Virus genome (UHGV): UHGV-0197964
Length of the DNA: 16,193 nt
Strand: one strand, 5' to 3'
From: a virus
Part shown: piece after piece, positions 2,580-9,691 of the stretch
Position numbering within the stretch: position 1 is the stretch's first letter
Layout of the letters: each line of letters begins with the position of its first letter
Program-made: the position numbers and the translations under genes
Notes under the pieces: model-generated
What the model was told of the DNA's origin: nothing
The model's input: only the letters and a program-made list of their open reading frames with translations
Database searches by the model: none

Positions 2580-2866
2580 GACTTAATCTTCCCCTCCCTC
2601 AGCAGTATCGCCTGCGTCCTGATCACGCCTTCGAGGTGGTAAAGTCTGGCGTCTTTGTTGTCGATATTATGGGTGCGTCGGTCGATCTCCGCGTGGCAGT
2701 CACTACAAGCCCATGCACCGATCAGGTCGTCAGGCTTCATTCCCGTTCCGCAAATTCCAGCCATCCGGTAATGTGCCAGAACTGTAGTTTCAGGATTGCC
2801 ATTGCATACGCCGTAAATACGTACCTGGCATTCTCTGTTGCGCGCTTCTTTGCGTAGGTTAGCCAT
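2576..2866 (-). CDS. ybcO: YbcO-like (DUF1364-type) Cys-rich putative nuclease
   Basis: 96 aa closely matching recalled DLP12 YbcO (ECQVRIYGVCNGNPET...CSDCHAEIDRRTH). Confidence 0.75.
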   Translation of the reverse strand: MANLRKEARNRECQVRIYGVCNGNPETTVLAHYRMAGICGTGMKPDDLIGAWACSDCHAEIDRRTHNIDNKDARLYHLEGVIRTQAILLREGKIKS

Positions 2867-3591
2867 TAAGCAGCCTCTCCTGTTACTTTCAGCATTCCGT
2901 TATCGAGCAGCTTTCTGGTCAGCCACTGTTGGCCACGTCCGGTGATTTTTGTAGTGAACGATATCTGTATTCCGTGATTTGTGTTGACCGCTGTTTCTTT
3001 CACTGTGAAATAGCCGCGATCCATATATTCCTGCATTGGCACATTGCGCCGGGAACCTGAAGCAATAAGGATTTTGTGATCGCGCATCCACGCAAACAGT
3101 TTGTTTGGACCAATTCCAACAACCTTTGCAAAGTTTCCAATCAAAATTCCACTGGCCTCGCCAACGCGATCGGCAAACTCAACTTTAGGTGCGGCAATTG
3201 CGAGCTGGTTTTCCAGTTGCATTTTCTGCTCAGCAAGGTTAGCAGCAAGGCGCAACGCTTCTGGTAGCGTTTTGGGGATATTAACCGCAGCTTCTTCAAG
3301 CTCTCGCCAACGGTCAACAAGGCGAGCGGTGAACTCTGGCGACAACTGGGCGACGACAATAATGCTGTCTCGCTTTCCTTGTTCGCCCTCGAAGACGTAG
3401 AAATCACGCTTCCCGGTAATAACACCTAAATCATTGATTATGTTAGTGTGCTGCAATGCAGGAGGCTTGATAACGCCACGTTTCACCAATCTATCTATGG
3501 ATACTTTTACATTGCTATGGCGGCTTTCTACCAACTCAGCGATTTCAATGCTTGTCATTTTGATGGCATTGCCATTTATTAACTCATTCAT
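2866..3591 (-). CDS. phage antirepressor, Rha N-terminal domain plus KilAC/ANT C-terminal domain
   Basis: 241 aa; N-terminal TSIEIAEL...RHSNV resembles Rha family; C-terminal region resembles KilA-C/ANT; stop overlaps ybcO start. Confidence 0.7.
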   Translation of the reverse strand: MNELINGNAIKMTSIEIAELVESRHSNVKVSIDRLVKRGVIKPPALQHTNIINDLGVITGKRDFYVFEGEQGKRDSIIVVAQLSPEFTARLVDRWRELEEAAVNIPKTLPEALRLAANLAEQKMQLENQLAIAAPKVEFADRVGEASGILIGNFAKVVGIGPNKLFAWMRDHKILIASGSRRNVPMQEYMDRGYFTVKETAVNTNHGIQISFTTKITGRGQQWLTRKLLDNGMLKVTGEAA

Positions 3592-3754: not shown

Positions 3755-3933
3755 CTTGTATTCCTCGCACGATTTCTTAGCCACCGGATATCCCACAAGT
3801 GAGCCGTGTAGTTGAAGGTTTTTACGTCAGATTCTTTTGGAATTGGCTTGCGTTTATTTCTGGAGCGTTTCGTTGGAAGGTATTTGCAGTTTTCGCAGAT
3901 GATGTCGGTGAAACTTCGTCGCTGTCGTCTCAT
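3751..3933 (-). CDS. ninE: NinE
   Basis: Internal Met gives 60 aa [52 protein letters not shown]..., near-identical to recalled lambda NinE; ATG overlaps methyltransferase stop (ATGA). Confidence 0.85.
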
Positions 3934-4457
3934 GTCGCCCTCCTGACGCCCTGCCCGATCGCCATCAATGCCGCTTTGGATACGGTAGTAAACATCCGTC
4001 GAGGACTGATGAACGGTCGCCAAATCAGCAGCATGGAGCCTTTGCTGTTTCCCTTCTTCTCCAGCCCCGTCGATGGTTCGATAAAATTAATCCGTCCATC
4101 AGTGATGATGCGAACTTCGTCAACGCTCTCCAGAGCCTTGCTGAACCATCCGACTGACATATCCTCTGGCACAAGCATCACTACCGTCTGTCGCTGTTGT
4201 ATGCACTGCTCAGCAGCTTTTTCCACCCACGGCCTGATATTGCTGTACGGTGGGTTATTCCAGATTGCACCGTGGCTTACCCACTCAGAATTGAGCGCGT
4301 CGTCGGCCTCAGTTAGCCAGTGAGCGCACAGAGCATTTTTGTCGCTCGCTGCCGAATCCAGCCAGAATCCAAACTCAATATCCAGTGCATCAAAAAGCCA
4401 AAGCGGCGTTTGCCAGCAGTCCTTGTCGTGTGCCGGCGTATTTGATTTGATAGTCAC
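3930..4457 (-). CDS. phage Dam-type DNA N6-adenine methyltransferase (orphan, no adjacent nuclease)
   Basis: Contains NPPY motif ([10 protein letters not shown]) and CWQTP...LF N-terminal motif typical of phage Dam family; GTG start at 4457 with AGGAG upstream overlaps ninB stop (GTGA); ORF-track start 4493 is a TTG. Confidence 0.8.
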
Positions 4458-4879
4458 TCTACTTGCCTCTCCTTTAGATCCAGGTACTCGCAATTATCAG
4501 GAATGGTTAGTCGTAATCCCTTCTGATGCGCCCACTGGTCAATATCGGTCAGATATTTGTGCATATCTCCAATATCAAGCTGACGTGTTGATTTAACGCA
4601 TCGTGTAATATTAAAAATCGTCACCCTTTTAGCCGGACAAAACATATCTTTCAGCCACTCATGAACCTCTTCAGGCGTGAAGTTTTCAGCAGAAGCAGCA
4701 GATAACTGTGCGGCTATTTCTGCATTCCACACCCACATCAGATTGTTTTGTGACAATGTACGCTTCTCACGGTACTCAGATATTTTGATTCGCCAGCGTT
4801 TGCCGGTAGAGAGGATTTGTTTCAGAACTAACCAGAATTGTGATTTATTGGTTTCGTGCAGAATGAAATCATTCATCAT
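4454..4879 (-). CDS. ninB: NinB/Orf-family recombination mediator (family-level call)
   Basis: 141 aa; position immediately upstream of the nin genes and a conserved segment (RTLSQNNLMWVWNAEIA vs lambda RSLDQNRKLWACLGDVS) support NinB. Confidence 0.55.
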   Translation of the reverse strand: MMNDFILHETNKSQFWLVLKQILSTGKRWRIKISEYREKRTLSQNNLMWVWNAEIAAQLSAASAENFTPEEVHEWLKDMFCPAKRVTIFNITRCVKSTRQLDIGDMHKYLTDIDQWAHQKGLRLTIPDNCEYLDLKERQVE

Positions 4880-5181: not shown

Positions 5182-6558
5182 TCATACGTCAGCCCCTTGT
5201 GCATATCGTCTGCCACGCGCAGCAGGTGCATTTGATGCTGTGCAAATCTGTCTGGCTTCATCCTGGTCACACGCAACAAAGTGTCCGTTGCAGAACCGCT
5301 GGTAAACCGTACCAAGTGAGCCAAAACGGTTTTTCGTCACGATGATTTCAGCAAATGGCGCGGCGCTACTGTTCTCGTCATATACAGCTTCCCGATAGAG
5401 CATGATGATTGAGTCTGCGTCCTGTTCAATGCTTCCTGAATCACGCAAATCTGCGTTTGTCGGGCGCTTGTTTGGTCGCTTCTCAACATCGCGTGAAAGC
5501 TGACTCAGGGAAATAACCGGTGTTTTCAGGTCTTTCGCCATCGCCTTCATGCTTCCGGAGATGTGAGCAATTGCGAGGTCGTTGCGGTCTGCTTTCGGCT
5601 TCTCAATCAGGCCAAGATAATCCGCCATGATGAGTGACAGGTTTGGATTTTCCTGTTTGTGCCTTTCTGCGATTGAGCGAATTTCTTCGACCGATAACCG
5701 CGAGGCATCGACTACCCATACATCCAAATCTGCAAGCTGACTCATGCCGTTAGCAACACGCGCCCAGCCTTCGTCATCCATCGATGCAGGATTTCGCAGT
5801 ACGCTAACCGACATTCTCCCGGCGTTGGCAATGCTTCGCTCTGCAATCTGCAATGCGCTCATTTCCATTGAGAAAATCAATACTCCGCGCCGGACGTCAG
5901 AACCAGGAATAACGCGGCTTGCAACGCCTTCGGCAATCTTCAGCGCCAGTTCGGTTTTCCCCATACCAGGACGAGCAGCGATTATCACCAGGTCTTCTGC
6001 GTTCATCCCTCCGGTGATAGCGTCAAGCTCTTCGATTCCGGTCTTCAGGGTATCGGACTCTTCTCCGTTCCTCAGACGCCTGTCAAGCGTGTCAGTGTAG
6101 TCGGTGATGATTTCCCCTAACCGTACAGGTTTAACCTCGTCACGGGGCTTTCTGATAGCTGAAAGACGCTTTACGAGCTCGTCCATCGCCTGACTCGATG
6201 TATCGATGGTTCCGCTCTGAATTGGTTCACGCATTTCATCCATGATTTCCAGCACCAGACGGCGGTGATAGTTATCCGCGACCATTCCGGCATATCCCTT
6301 CAGGTTTGCGGCACTCGGGCAGTTTTTGCTGGTCATCAGGATTGACGTGAAATGCTCCTCTCCGCACGCCTCGGCAACCATCAGCGCGTCGATTAGGTTT
6401 CTGTTTCGCGCCTGCTTGCGGATAACCTCGAAGGCTTTCCGGTAGAGCGGAATTGAAAACGCTTCCGGCTCCAGCGTTGCCAGAACGTCGCTGGCGGTTG
6501 GTGTTAATCCACCAATCAGCAGGCCACCGATAACGCTCGCTTCGATATCCTGTTTCAT
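5182..6558 (-). CDS. DnaB-type replicative DNA helicase (P22 gene 12-like)
   Basis: 458 aa; Walker [12 protein letters not shown] and DnaB C-terminal domain organisation; ATGA overlap with upstream initiator. Confidence 0.9.
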
Positions 6559-7502
6559 GCAATCCCCCTGTCTGCAAACTTCCCTTCCCGAACTCCCGTT
6601 AACGAGTCTTCTCTCAGCAGGTAATCAAAATCAGCCGTCCAGCCCGTGTCGTTGTCTCCGAAGTAAAACGGCTTGGCCTGATGCACAAACGCCCTGACAT
6701 ACGCCCTGAAACCGTCCACGTTTGGCGTTTTCAGTTGCGGGATGATTTTCTTCAGGCGGCGTTTGCGTTTCTCGTTGACCGCAACAGCGTGTGGCAGTCT
6801 GTCACCGACTTCGGTGTTGTAGGCGTTCAGGAAGGATTCGTAGTCGATTCGTTCTGCCTTGCGACGTTCAGGTTTAACCTGCCCATCGCCTCCCCCATTG
6901 GGGGGTAGGGGGGTATTATTTATATTCTTGTTAATACCTTCTTGTTCATGATGTGCGGTTGTTTGTGCGGCTTCATGTGCGCTTTCATGTGCGGCATGTA
7001 CGCTGAAAGCCGCGCCATTGCTGGCTTCATCATGTGCGGAATCATGTGCGGTTGTTTGTGCGGCTTCATGTGCGGGTAAATCGTCCATTTTTTGAGCATA
7101 TTCATGGTAATTTGTGATGGTTATCACACGACCTTTTTGCTTCTCTCCATCAATGGAGATCATCCCCTCTTTCACAAAAACCTGAAGCATCCGCTCAACC
7201 TGATCACGGCTTGCTGGCTTGCCATGTCTGTCGCATAACTGAAGACCTAAATCAGCTGCTGTCACAACCAGTTGACCGGGTTGCAGATGCCATTCATTAC
7301 CTTTGAAATTCGCTTTGTATGGCTTTCTGGCGGCATTCAGGAGAAGGTTTTCCCACAGGGTGCGAAGATAAACATCTTTCGCCCATGACTGTTTCAGAAT
7401 GCTCCGGTACAACGGAATGTAACCAGTTTTCTGGTTCTCCATCCTGTTGCTCCTGCGCTCGTGTGCGGCGCTGAAATCGTAGATTTTTGCTGTATTGCTC
7501 AT
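6555..7502 (-). CDS. replication initiator (O-like / replisome organizer) with His/Ala-rich repeat linker
   Basis: 315 aa; N-terminus [10 protein letters not shown] resembles lambda O start; sits immediately upstream of and coupled to the helicase; internal repeats coincide with the DNA iterons. Confidence 0.75.
6949..7074. repeat. iteron array inside the initiator gene: 31-bp perfect direct repeat (6951-6981, 7044-7074) built from ~9-bp CATGTGCGG-type units
   Basis: Counted directly: about 8-9 copies of (C/T)(A/T)TGTGCGG at ~11-12 bp spacing; flanked at 6915-6940 by a ~85% AT stretch. Confidence 0.7.
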
Positions 7503-7504
7503 AA

Positions 7505-7777
7505 CTACCTGCCTTGACGAAAGACCTTAAGAACATCGTTAAACTGACTTACGGATATGTCTTCTTTGAGAAGCTTTTCCAGAAATGCGTTTGGAATGAA
7601 CGTATATCCCTCCTCTTTTGGTAGAGACGGGAGCAACGCCCTCGCCTCAGCCTTCAGAAGCTCAGTTCTGGCAACTTTCACAAAAGAGATTTGAGTTCTT
7701 TCATCAATGGAACGAAGGAAGCGCAAACGCTTAGCTTCTTTGTGTGTATCAGGTGGATTAAAGCCTTTGTTTCGCAT
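7505..7777 (-). CDS. hypothetical protein (90 aa) immediately upstream of the initiator
   Basis: ATG at 7777 with GAGG ~10 nt upstream; no recognisable motif. Confidence 0.5.
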   Translation of the reverse strand: MRNKGFNPPDTHKEAKRLRFLRSIDERTQISFVKVARTELLKAEARALLPSLPKEEGYTFIPNAFLEKLLKEDISVSQFNDVLKVFRQGR

Positions 7778-7788
7778 ATAATTACCTC

Positions 7789-7866
7789 GTTGGATGTTGT
7801 TAAAATTCCATTTGTATTTGATCAGAACGCTCGGTCTTGCACACCGGGCGTTTTATTTTTTTATGT
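7789..7866 (+). ncRNA. oop: oop-like antisense RNA (~78 nt) with its own -10 and intrinsic terminator
   Basis: Perfect TATAAT at 7777-7782; transcript would start GUUGGAU...; terminator hairpin GCUCGGU/ACCGGGC (7 bp, one G-U) at 7829-7850 followed by a U-rich run to ~7867; resembles recalled lambda oop in length, start and 3' end. Confidence 0.5.
7802..7852 (-). repeat. unused second copy of the cII 3' end, downstream of the HNH gene
   Basis: Minus-strand frame reads RPVCKTERSDQIQMEF-stop, homologous to lambda cII C-terminus (RPAATERSEQIQMEF); shares CCGGGCGTTTT with the active cII 3' end at 8333-8345. Confidence 0.65.
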
Positions 7867-8281
7867 GCTTCCATTTTTCACCTCTGCAAATGGCAGCTAT
7901 ATAATTTGGCGTTACTCCATATTTTTTTGATAATGCCCTTGTGTTGAATAAGGGGTGTCTTGGTATATATTCACTAATGATGTTTCTTACATCATCTTCA
8001 GTTAATTTTGCCCTACCATTCCTGCTTCCAAATGCCTGCCTTTTTCTCTCCACCATGTCATTTGCGTTTTGCTGACTTGTCCCAGCACATAAATGAGAAG
8101 GTAAAATACAAGAAGGATTGTCACATGCGTGACGAATTACTAAGCCATCTATATCTTCAAGCTGGATCCCTTTTGCCACACAATAAGCAAATCTATGAGC
8201 AAATACTTTTTTCCCATTAATCCAAACCCTTCCATAACCCTTGCTGTCCTTTAAACCGCCAAATTCCAAACACGGAGTCAT
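7853..8281 (-). CDS. HNH homing-type endonuclease (HNH_3-like)
   Basis: 142 aa; GYGRVWINGKKVFAHRFAY and HACDNPSCILPSHL motifs typical of phage HNH endonucleases; visibly AT-richer than flanks; own RBS 10 nt after the cII stop. Confidence 0.85.
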   Translation of the reverse strand: MTPCLEFGGLKDSKGYGRVWINGKKVFAHRFAYCVAKGIQLEDIDGLVIRHACDNPSCILPSHLCAGTSQQNANDMVERKRQAFGSRNGRAKLTEDDVRNIISEYIPRHPLFNTRALSKKYGVTPNYIAAICRGEKWKHIKK

Positions 8282-8291
8282 AAGACCATCC

Positions 8292-8585
8292 TTAAAAATT
8301 CATGGTTAACTGATTCTCAGCGAAAATATCCGCCGGGCGTTTTTTATTGGTGAGAATCGAAGCAACTTGTCGTGCCAATCGAGCCATGTCGTCGTCAACG
8401 ACGCCCCATTCAAGAACAGCAAGCAGCATTGAGAACTTTGGAATCCAGTCCCTCTTCCACCTGCTGATCTGCGACTTATCAACTCCCACAGCTTCCGCTG
8501 TCTTCTCAGTTCCAAGCATTGCGATTTTGTTAAGCAACGCACTCTCGATTCTTAGAGCCTCGTTGCGTTTGTTTGCACGAACCAT
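8292..8585 (-). CDS. cII: transcriptional activator CII
   Basis: Internal Met of the ORF gives 97 aa, identical to recalled lambda CII through residue ~84, then a divergent 13-aa tail (ADIFAENQLTMNF). Confidence 0.95.
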   Translation of the reverse strand: MVRANKRNEALRIESALLNKIAMLGTEKTAEAVGVDKSQISRWKRDWIPKFSMLLAVLEWGVVDDDMARLARQVASILTNKKRPADIFAENQLTMNF

Positions 8586-8600
8586 ATGTAAGTATTTCCT
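8560..8600 (+). promoter_or_regulatory. pRE-like promoter with CII site TTGC-N6-TTGC
   Basis: TTGCgtttgtTTGC at 8563-8576 on plus strand overlapping the cII start, oriented toward cro/cI as in lambda. Confidence 0.6.
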
Positions 8601-8664
8601 TAGATAACAATTGATTGAATGCATGCAAATAAATGCATACACCATAGGTGTGGTTTAATTTGAT

Positions 8665-8920: not shown

Positions 8921-9037
8921 ATGCCCTCCATAGTAACCATGAGGCAATAATACGATATGTACTTTTGGAATGCAAACAAAAAATACATCTTGTGCATGGA
9001 TGGTTTTAGTACAGAGCGTAATAATAAGGATATGAAA
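8921..9037. promoter_or_regulatory. right operator region (OR / pR / pRM) with candidate operators
   Basis: Divergent cro and cI starts ~115 bp apart; pR candidate -35 TTGCAT and -10 TATTAT (17-bp spacer) on minus strand; site at 8949-8963 matches the OL palindrome 13/15; weaker sites at 8982-8996 and 9008-9022. Confidence 0.6.
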
Positions 9038-9691
9038 ATGAAATGGTATGAACTGGCTAGATCCAGAATGAAAGAGCTCGGCATAACTCAAGAGAAGTTG
9101 GCTGAAGAGCTTGGTATGACGCAGGGTGGAATTGGTCACTGGTTGCGCGGATCTCGTCATCCATCTCTTGACGAGATTGGTGTGGTGTTTAAATACCTTG
9201 GTATTGATAACGTCTCATTCAACCACGACGGTACATTTTCACCTGTTGGCGAATACTCATCTTCCCCCGTTAAAAAACAATATGAGTACCCTGTTTTTTC
9301 TCATGTTCAGGCCGGGATGTTCTCGCCTGAGCTTAGAACCTTTACCAAAGGTGATGCGGAGAGATGGGTCAGCACAACCAAAAAAGCCAGTGATTGTGCG
9401 TTTTGGCTTGAAGTTGAAGGTAATTCCATGACCGCACCAACAGGATCCAAGCCAAGCTTTCCTGACGGGATGTTAATTCTCGTTGACCCTGAGCAGGCTG
9501 TTGAGCCAGGTGATTTCTGCATAGCCAGACTTGGTGGTGACGAGTTTACCTTCAAGAAACTGATCAGGGATAGCGGTCAGGTGTTCCTACAGCCACTAAA
9601 CCCGCAATATCCAATGATTCCATGCAATGATAGCTGTTCCGTAGTAGGGAAAGTTATCGCCAGCCAGTGGCCTGAAGAGACATTTAGTTAA
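9038..9691 (+). CDS. cI: CI repressor, chimeric: heterologous N-terminal HTH domain fused to lambda-type C-terminal cleavage/dimerisation domain
   Basis: From about [21 protein letters not shown] to the end it is near-identical to recalled lambda CI; N-terminal ~90 aa differ; start ATG 9038 chosen over 9032 on SD spacing. Confidence 0.9.

Follow-up and report, generated by a model that had tools for sequence, protein, structure and literature searches.

The replication locus

The stretch analysed here, 16,193 nucleotides of the virus genome UHGV-0197964 and hereafter called the window, comes from a lambdoid prophage and represents its immunity and early-right region, with the early-right genes on the minus strand. 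Its O-family replication initiator gene harbours an array of short direct repeats next to an A+T-rich tract, and this array had been proposed, from a reading of the letters alone (the original prediction), to be a replication origin built of iterons. At the DNA level the initiator gene shares 99.3% identity with gene O of CUS-3, a P22-like phage, and 98% with the corresponding gene in some 50 Stx2a-converting phages (Stx, Shiga toxin), and the segment 6800-7200, which spans the array, is present over at least 80% of its length in 272 of 5,426 complete E. coli genomes. No origin is annotated in the phage records inspected (e.g. CUS-3, Kapi1, HK446). The features of the replication locus are the following.

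6555-7502, minus strand: O-family replication initiator gene, 315 amino acids (Pfam PF04492, PHROG 345)
7089-7442, minus strand: predicted winged-helix DNA-binding domain of the initiator, amino acids 21-138 (AlphaFold2 model)
7029-7076, minus strand: iteron cluster 1, four 12-bp direct units with cores CCGCACAT, CCGCACAA, CCGCACAT, CCGCACAT
6996-7028, minus strand: spacer of 33 bp, GAAGCCAGCAATGGCGCGGCTTTCAGCGTACAT on the gene strand
6948-6995, minus strand: iteron cluster 2, four 12-bp direct units with cores CCGCACAT, GCGCACAT, CCGCACAA, CCGCACAT
6914-6948, minus strand: A+T-rich tract (85% A+T), a putative DNA-unwinding element
6892-6913, minus strand: two C6 tracts and a short palindrome, TACCCCCCTACCCCCC on the gene strand, with a predicted hairpin and a Tandem Repeats Finder (TRF) entry at 6900-6915
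5182-6558, minus strand: DnaB-type replicative helicase gene, 458 amino acids (Pfam DnaB_C, E = 2e-77; DnaB N-domain, E = 4e-13)

Pfam PF04492 (Phage_rep_O) covers amino acids 20-132 of the initiator (E = 3e-15), and PHROG 345, 'replication initiation O-like', also matches the protein. Its layout comprises an N-terminal peptide like that of lambda O, a winged-helix DNA-binding domain (the N-domain), a linker formed by the repeats and, from about amino acid 197, a helicase-partner C-domain. The gene on its 3′ side encodes a DnaB-family helicase, as in replication modules of the P22/HK97 type, and the helicase start overlaps the initiator stop at ATGA (6555-6558). The counterpart of the helicase gene is annotated as a replicative DNA helicase in CUS-3 and Kapi1, and by analogy this helicase would be the partner of the initiator C-domain.

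The N-domain was modelled with AlphaFold2 (amino acids 21-141) from an input of homologous database proteins, most of them truncated. The model is a winged helix of topology H-b-b-b-H-H-b-b with a mean predicted local distance difference test score (pLDDT) of 83; its predicted recognition helix spans amino acids 99-111, and the codon of D100 lies at 7203-7205. Foldseek searches with the model returned weak matches, mostly to winged-helix DNA-binding proteins but with ribosomal proteins and some enzymes among them, and a sequence search found no solved structure of an initiator homologue. Most database proteins with this N-domain are labelled 'partial' and end at 146-211 amino acids, within or just past the repeat linker, which points to the array as a frequent breakpoint of short-read assemblies.

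Anatomy of the repeat array

The 31-bp perfect direct repeat on which the original prediction was built is exact (6951-6981 and 7044-7074) and extends by no base on either side. It belongs to a repeat region in the linker of the initiator open reading frame (ORF; 6555-7502, minus strand), where, as had been recognised, the repeats also encode protein; they cover amino acids 142-185 of the initiator. On the gene strand this region consists of eight units of exactly 12 bp, or four codons, each with the pattern [NCC][GCA][CAW][NNN] and with CCGCACAT or CCGCACAA as the core, save for one GCGCACAT. The units form two clusters of four, at 7076-7065, 7064-7053, 7052-7041 and 7040-7029 in cluster 1 and at 6995-6984, 6983-6972, 6971-6960 and 6959-6948 in cluster 2. 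The last 9 nt of the spacer between them constitute a degenerate ninth unit, AGCGTACAT, which is a perfect AGCGCACAT in some close alleles. The earlier count of some eight to nine units is slightly corrected to eight plus a degenerate ninth, and so is their spacing, which had been described as roughly one helical turn; the period is 12 bp and not ~10.5 bp.

Of eight matches to the motif CCGCRCAW in the 16-kb window, seven are packed into 125 bp; these seven share the minus strand and keep a 12-bp register inside each four-unit cluster, and no second cluster of the core is present in the window. All units share one orientation and are without dyad symmetry, and the gene strand contains no reverse complement of the core. 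Single-strand folding of the repeat region is no better than that of shuffled sequence (z = -1.1, as compared with z = -5.3 for lambda). No DnaA box of the form TTWTNCACA was found within 7 kb, nor any consensus for IHF near the array.

Constraint at the DNA level

A scan of one genome per species gave 47 relatives, all in the Enterobacterales, with N-domains 67-88% identical. The units were analysed in a set of 47 elements, composed of the 43 scan loci that were readable, the window and three phage relatives. All 47 are built as n × 12 nt, 33 nt, n × 12 nt, where n, either 3 or 4, never differs between the two sides of an element; this is the outcome of the comparison of copy number across relatives that had been put forward with the original prediction.

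When the 324 units were stacked, the consensus N-C-C-G-(C/A)-(A/G)-C-A-T-n-n-n was obtained, with positions 2-9 conserved. The best-conserved base is position 3, a third-codon position that is C in 323 of 324 units although its codon encodes nine different amino acids (P, A, T, S, G, V, R, Y or N). Where this codon is four-fold degenerate it ends in C in 306 of 307 cases, as opposed to 24.6% in the N-domains of the same proteins. The His codon of the unit is CAT almost throughout and CAC in very few units, and the Ala codon is uniform within an element, either GCA or GCG, with a single exception in only three elements, whereas the N-domains use all four Ala codons.

The 79 near-identical alleles drawn from IMG/VR comprise at least 42 linker haplotypes, all of one length, and nucleotide diversity in this set is 0.008 in the cores (0.006 at their third-codon positions) against 0.053 in the flanks, 0.052 in the spacer and 0.026 at the third positions of the N-domain. 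The pattern of constraint points to selection acting on the nucleotide sequence and not on the peptide. Concerted evolution or gene conversion was considered as a cause of the uniform cores and rejected, because clusters 1 and 2 are no more alike at their variable positions within elements than between them (0.58 vs 0.56 for n = 3; 0.50 vs 0.42 for n = 4). Since the two clusters are not generally alike within an element, the 31-bp perfect repeat of the window is, on these comparisons, a recent lineage-specific duplication; as a repeated element it is exact, but it is not the functional unit.

The linker has constant length in 79/79 IMG/VR alleles, and every one of the full-coverage matches listed among the 272 E. 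coli genomes spans the same 401 bp. Otherwise identical initiator genes without the repeats, whose existence would have spoken against an origin, were looked for among the alleles read, and no repeat-less allele was found, the repeats being present in every one. That a change in repeat number would alter protein and array together was also anticipated, and such a change is seen in the allele of E. coli ETEC1749 (L056, NZ_CP122712.1, 1654235-1655308), where two extra 93-bp super-repeats produce four clusters and 62 extra residues; this allele is from a complete genome and may possibly be an assembly artefact. In Stx phages, extra iterons have been reported to lengthen O by 13 residues and to alter origin behaviour (PMC7466680).

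Co-variation of the core with the recognition helix

The sixth base of the core is synonymous and is either all A or all G within an element. This base divides 45 sequences into 22 of an A-class and 23 of a G-class, and exactly three of the 123 columns in the N-domain alignment separate the two classes without overlap, namely those of residues 82 (A/P in the A-class, S/T in the G-class), 100 (D and H, respectively) and 118. According to the model, helix 2 begins with residue 82, the predicted recognition helix has residue 100 as its second position, and residue 118 is part of the wing. D100 goes with CCGCACAT and H100 with CCGCGCAT, and an Asp opposite an A:T pair and a His opposite a G:C pair are chemically sensible contacts. 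In a tree calculated without columns 82, 100 and 118, one G-class element (L037) falls inside an A-class clade, which means that the A/G switch either occurred at least twice or was moved by recombination along with the repeats.

Sister families, whose N-domains are 46-66% identical, keep the scaffold of 3 × 12, 33 and 3 × 12 and the A+T tract, and combine these with other recognition helices and other cores. Five pairs were found across the relatives.

Helix SRDxVxRML: core CCGCACAT
Helix SRHxV(D/E)RML: core CCG(C/A)GCAT
Helix SPQAVTRM: core CCGAT(G/A)AAC
Helix SxKAVERM: core GTCGAA / GACGA
Helix xKQVRDM: core AGGTAACAAA

The repeat sequence is thus specific to the N-domain, as is the case for lambda-type origins, and the pairing of helix and core is the pattern expected of iterons and the initiator that recognises them.

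The spacer follows a different rule. Its length is 33 bp in 47/47 elements, and the first ~22 nt (consensus GAAgCCAGTAATGGCGCGGCTT; spacer 6996-7028) are conserved at the DNA level, with the third-codon positions 6, 15 and 18 kept under changing amino acids. This element, seen in the window and in the loci L008-L053 and L138-L217, is common to all five specificity classes, including the sister families with different cores, and shows no co-variation with the initiator. Candidate explanations are recognition by a host factor, contact with an initiator surface that does not vary, or a short peptide motif, PSNGAAL, with added codon constraint. The DnaA-box and IHF consensus sequences were tested as explanations of its conservation, and neither is present.

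The A+T-rich tract and the module junction

In the direction of the gene, the repeats are followed by CATCATGAACAAGAA, the A+T tract, two C6 tracts (G on the plus strand) and a small palindrome. The original prediction had placed a G-tract first and an AT-rich stretch after it; both exist, but in this direction the A+T tract precedes the G (C) tracts. With 15% G+C, positions 6915-6940 are among the lowest 0.2% of all 26-bp stretches in the window. An A+T tract (0-23% G+C over 26 bp) comes after the last unit in 51/51 relatives, and there is an equivalent in lambda.

Beyond the A+T tract, GGGGGGTA occurs twice at 6900-6915, and the palindrome CCCCCC-AAT-GGGGG, a predicted hairpin, overlaps the C6 tracts. 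Three or four unrelated C-domains (HK446, ENT1, L047) are preceded by a C5-N(2-4)-G5 palindrome that directly adjoins the A+T tract, while lambda-type C-domains have the palindrome GTCAGAGAATTC/GAATCCTCTGAC at the same place instead. The C5-N-G5 palindrome may be an element marking the right-hand boundary of the origin, analogous in position to the right-hand palindrome of lambda. The fuller arrangement of C5-6, 2-4 nt and G5 with a second C-tract ahead was observed in the window (6892-6913) and in the loci L005, L006, L007 and L047.

A module junction is located inside the A+T tract, near 6930. Another 429 E. coli genomes match 6800-6931 only, that is the module on the side of the C-domain and helicase, and HK446 matches 6880-6929 only. 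Given this position of the junction, the two sides travel as separate modules, the first consisting of the N-domain, the iterons and half of the A+T tract, and the second of the other half, the palindrome, the C-domain and the helicase.

Neighbouring genes

The remaining features of the window are listed here.

8957-9691, plus strand: cI-like repressor gene
Immunity/early-right region: cro-like helix-turn-helix gene
8292-8645, minus strand: cII
7853-8281, minus strand: HNH endonuclease gene (Pfam HNH_3, 142 amino acids), between cII and the 90-amino-acid ORF
7505-7777, minus strand: ORF of 90 amino acids directly upstream of the initiator gene (PHROG 2519, function not assigned)
3930-4493 and 2866-3591, minus strand: Dam-family methyltransferase gene and KilAC/Rha-type antirepressor gene

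The HNH ORF at 7853-8281 resembles a free-standing homing endonuclease that has inserted into the early-right operon; Kapi1 lacks a gene at that position, and the CUS-3 record leaves only ~300 bp unannotated there. Just beyond the end of this ORF there is a strong terminator-like hairpin (7824-7864, plus strand) of 12 pairs with a T-run behind it; this hairpin is on the strand that does not carry the early-right genes, has no Rfam match and might terminate an antisense (oop-like) transcript or work in both directions. No sigma-70 promoter-like sites were found in 6400-7900.

The 90-amino-acid ORF (7505-7777) is conserved and always accompanies this initiator in CUS-3-like phages. The idea that it is a paralogue of the initiator's DNA-binding domain was rejected, as there is no similarity (E = 0.56) and no Pfam match; one phage record puts the Phage_rep_O note on this ORF, which is unrelated to the initiator. 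In the nin region, downstream of the helicase on the minus strand, the methyltransferase gene encodes an N6-adenine methyltransferase of the Dam family and lies together with the antirepressor gene of KilAC/Rha type.

A candidate origin and its alternatives

The repeats very probably serve a CUS-3-like lambdoid prophage as its origin of vegetative replication, placed inside the initiator gene itself. Comparative evidence supports the origin that had been predicted, through the O-family context, the conserved two-cluster architecture, the constraint at the DNA level, the co-variation of helix and core, the equivalence in position with ori-lambda and the A+T tract in 51/51 relatives. Judged from sequence, the array is a known kind of element, an origin lodged in the initiator gene of a lambdoid phage, whose iterons are arranged in a variant way.

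The steps that would lead to initiation, from binding and unwinding to helicase loading, are proposed by analogy, and so is origin activity. As in lambda O and P22 gp18/gp12, the winged-helix N-domain would bind the eight 12-bp direct units through the core CCGCACAT, and D100 at the start of the recognition helix would read the sixth core base. The two four-unit arrays, with their cores 45 bp apart by way of the conserved spacer, would build an O-some-like nucleoprotein complex that destabilises the adjoining 85% A+T tract (6914-6948); the C-domain of the initiator would then bring in the phage DnaB-type helicase, followed by host primase and polymerase. One may speculate further that the winged helices bind head to tail along the direct 12-bp units, in two arrays of equal size (three or four units each) that flank the ~22-bp element and its non-co-varying reader, but this particular geometry is rather doubtful. 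Within it, the central element would be read by a factor from the host or by a part of the initiator surface that stays constant.

Several observations weigh against an origin at this place. Asn, Lys and Ile codons by themselves give an A+T tract, and the position of the junction in that tract may owe something to recombination history. The co-variation of D/H with A/G rests on about two evolutionary events and is partly confounded by phylogeny, and the fold matches of the N-domain are weak, with Foldseek E-values of at least 0.017. The units are without the dyad symmetry of lambda, P22-type and HK97-type iterons, so the binding mode of the initiator cannot simply be copied from lambda. Neither the variant architecture nor any iterons or origin for CUS-3-type initiators were found described in the searchable literature, older subscription-only literature being outside the search. 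The papers on 'Eru' typing of Stx phages do not analyse origins.

The same evidence bears on other explanations of the repeats. They lie in frame with a four-codon period in a linker that is expected to be flexible between two domains, and the amino acids between the A-H dipeptides are highly variable, all of which would suit a low-complexity, slippage-prone, His/Ala-rich protein linker without any function in DNA, the origin being elsewhere. Such a linker is a very unlikely explanation in view of the best-conserved positions, which are synonymous or lie under changing amino acids (C at position 3 in 323/324 units; His mostly CAT), of an Ala codon that is near-uniformly GCA or GCG per element when all four are used in the N-domains, and of a diversity at core third positions four times below that at N-domain third positions. 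Constraint on synonymous sites is in principle also compatible with selection at the level of RNA, be it on mRNA structure, on pausing at repeated codons or on a small RNA, and the conserved bases might alternatively be sites for host proteins; the spacer element, which is without initiator co-variation, might bind something else. Against this, there is no Rfam match at E up to 1, folding is no better than shuffled (z = -1.1), neither a DnaA-box nor an IHF consensus lies nearby, and the core changes with the recognition helix, as an RNA signal or a host factor would not; this account is highly improbable.

That the units are recognised by the initiator says nothing of the purpose, and co-variation would be expected also of real binding sites that serve control by titration, handcuffing, autoregulation or exclusion of related phages, with the unwinding site elsewhere. 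In Stx phages, additional iterons are known to play modulatory roles (PMC7466680), and cloned lambda iterons inhibit related phages (PMC3349717). A purely regulatory array is nevertheless unlikely, since the A+T tract adjoins the last unit in 51/51 relatives, the position is equivalent to that of the experimentally defined ori-lambda and no second core cluster exists in the 16-kb window; moreover, roles in initiation and in control are not mutually exclusive.

If the repeats are the origin, the implications extend beyond the window, as the same initiator allele is shared by 272/5,426 complete E. coli genomes, by many Stx2a-converting phages and by P22-like phages, among them CUS-3 and Kapi1. 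Knowledge of the origin and its specificity determinants would help to build mini-replicons, to predict replication incompatibility or exclusion between co-resident prophages and to interpret replication-module typing schemes for Stx phages. The five helices and five cores on a fixed scaffold amount to a natural specificity table for a winged-helix initiator, from which a single-residue prediction follows: with D100H, CCGCGCAT should replace CCGCACAT as the preferred core. Neither the layout in two clusters of non-palindromic units nor the universal spacer fits the lambda paradigm, and both would call for a mechanistic explanation of their own. Defence of the OLD type has been proposed to sense iteron hairpins (bioRxiv 10.64898/2026.07.10.737580). 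As the iterons here are not palindromic, such an origin, when melted, would form no iteron hairpins and might, on the doubtful head-to-tail reading above, escape OLD-type surveillance.

Comparison with known origins

An origin inside the initiator gene is treated as established for lambda and P22 and is predicted for Salmonella phage L (PMC8022706). The closest parallel is ori-lambda, to which the array had been likened from the outset. The annotated lambda iterons occupy O codons 117-145 and are followed by a 41-bp tract of 22% G+C and then by a C-domain starting YSSENSGESSD. Both arrays lie in the linker of a Phage_rep_O initiator, between a DNA-binding N-domain and a partner-binding C-domain, and in both the direction of transcription leads from the repeats to an A+T tract of ~35-40 bp and on to a short palindrome. 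Eight half-sites in lambda correspond to eight units here, the repeats of both encode protein so that copy number alters both, and in each case the N-domain goes with iterons of a sequence specific to it. Many relatives of the N-domain in the window, for example in Klebsiella and Yersinia phages and in Superficieibacter, are moreover fused right after the A+T tract to lambda's own type of C-domain (SSSENSGESSD), together with a P- or DnaC-like partner, and these carry CCGCACAT units and an A+T tract exactly where lambda has its iterons and A+T tract.

The likeness thus holds for position and for the A+T tract after the repeats, but it does not extend to the repeats themselves. Lambda has four palindromic iterons of ~18 bp, spaced 20-24 bp and with strong single-strand hairpin potential (z = -5.3), whereas the window has eight 12-bp units of one orientation (z = -1.1) in two equal clusters. 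The strictly equal number of units in the clusters and the universal spacer element have no counterpart in lambda, and the partner is a phage DnaB-type helicase and not a P-type loader of the host DnaB. A head-to-tail arrangement implies an oligomer geometry different from that of lambda. The Stx phages 933W and P27 (six iterons) resemble the window in that a change in iteron number also lengthens O, but theirs are true lambda iterons with lambda-type O and P, and the window represents a different specificity family.

Direct repeats of one orientation, a winged-helix initiator and an adjoining A+T-rich unwinding element are also shared with the iteron plasmids RK2, pPS10, F and R6K. The plasmid iterons are, however, 17-22 bp long with a spacing of ~22 bp, lie outside the rep gene, are usually accompanied by DnaA boxes and are served by a different initiator family, as opposed to a 12-bp period, an array inside the gene and no TTWTNCACA within 7 kb in the window. 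Among P22-like phages, phage L has a predicted origin of six imprecise 11-bp repeats, TGTCCAACGGA, inside gene 18, assigned by analogy only (PMC8022706); it has in common with the window the short repeats within an O-like initiator gene, but has repeats of another sequence and an initiator that is no more than a distant relative. The origin of P22 itself is reported inside the initiator gene, with four repeats of about 20 bp (PMC8022706).

In P22 (gene 18/gene 12) and in HK97 (gp54/gp55) and HK446, as in the window, an O-like initiator is followed by a phage DnaB-type helicase, and the HK446/HK97 type further shares its C-domain, G-tracts and helicase type with the window. The C-domain of HK446 gp44 is identical to that of the window initiator, and the partner helicase has the same length. 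The N-domain of HK446 is unrelated in sequence, and its repeats are four palindromic copies of ATTAGCYGNNTTGGCTAAT, spaced 23, 24 and 20 bp in a lambda-like manner.

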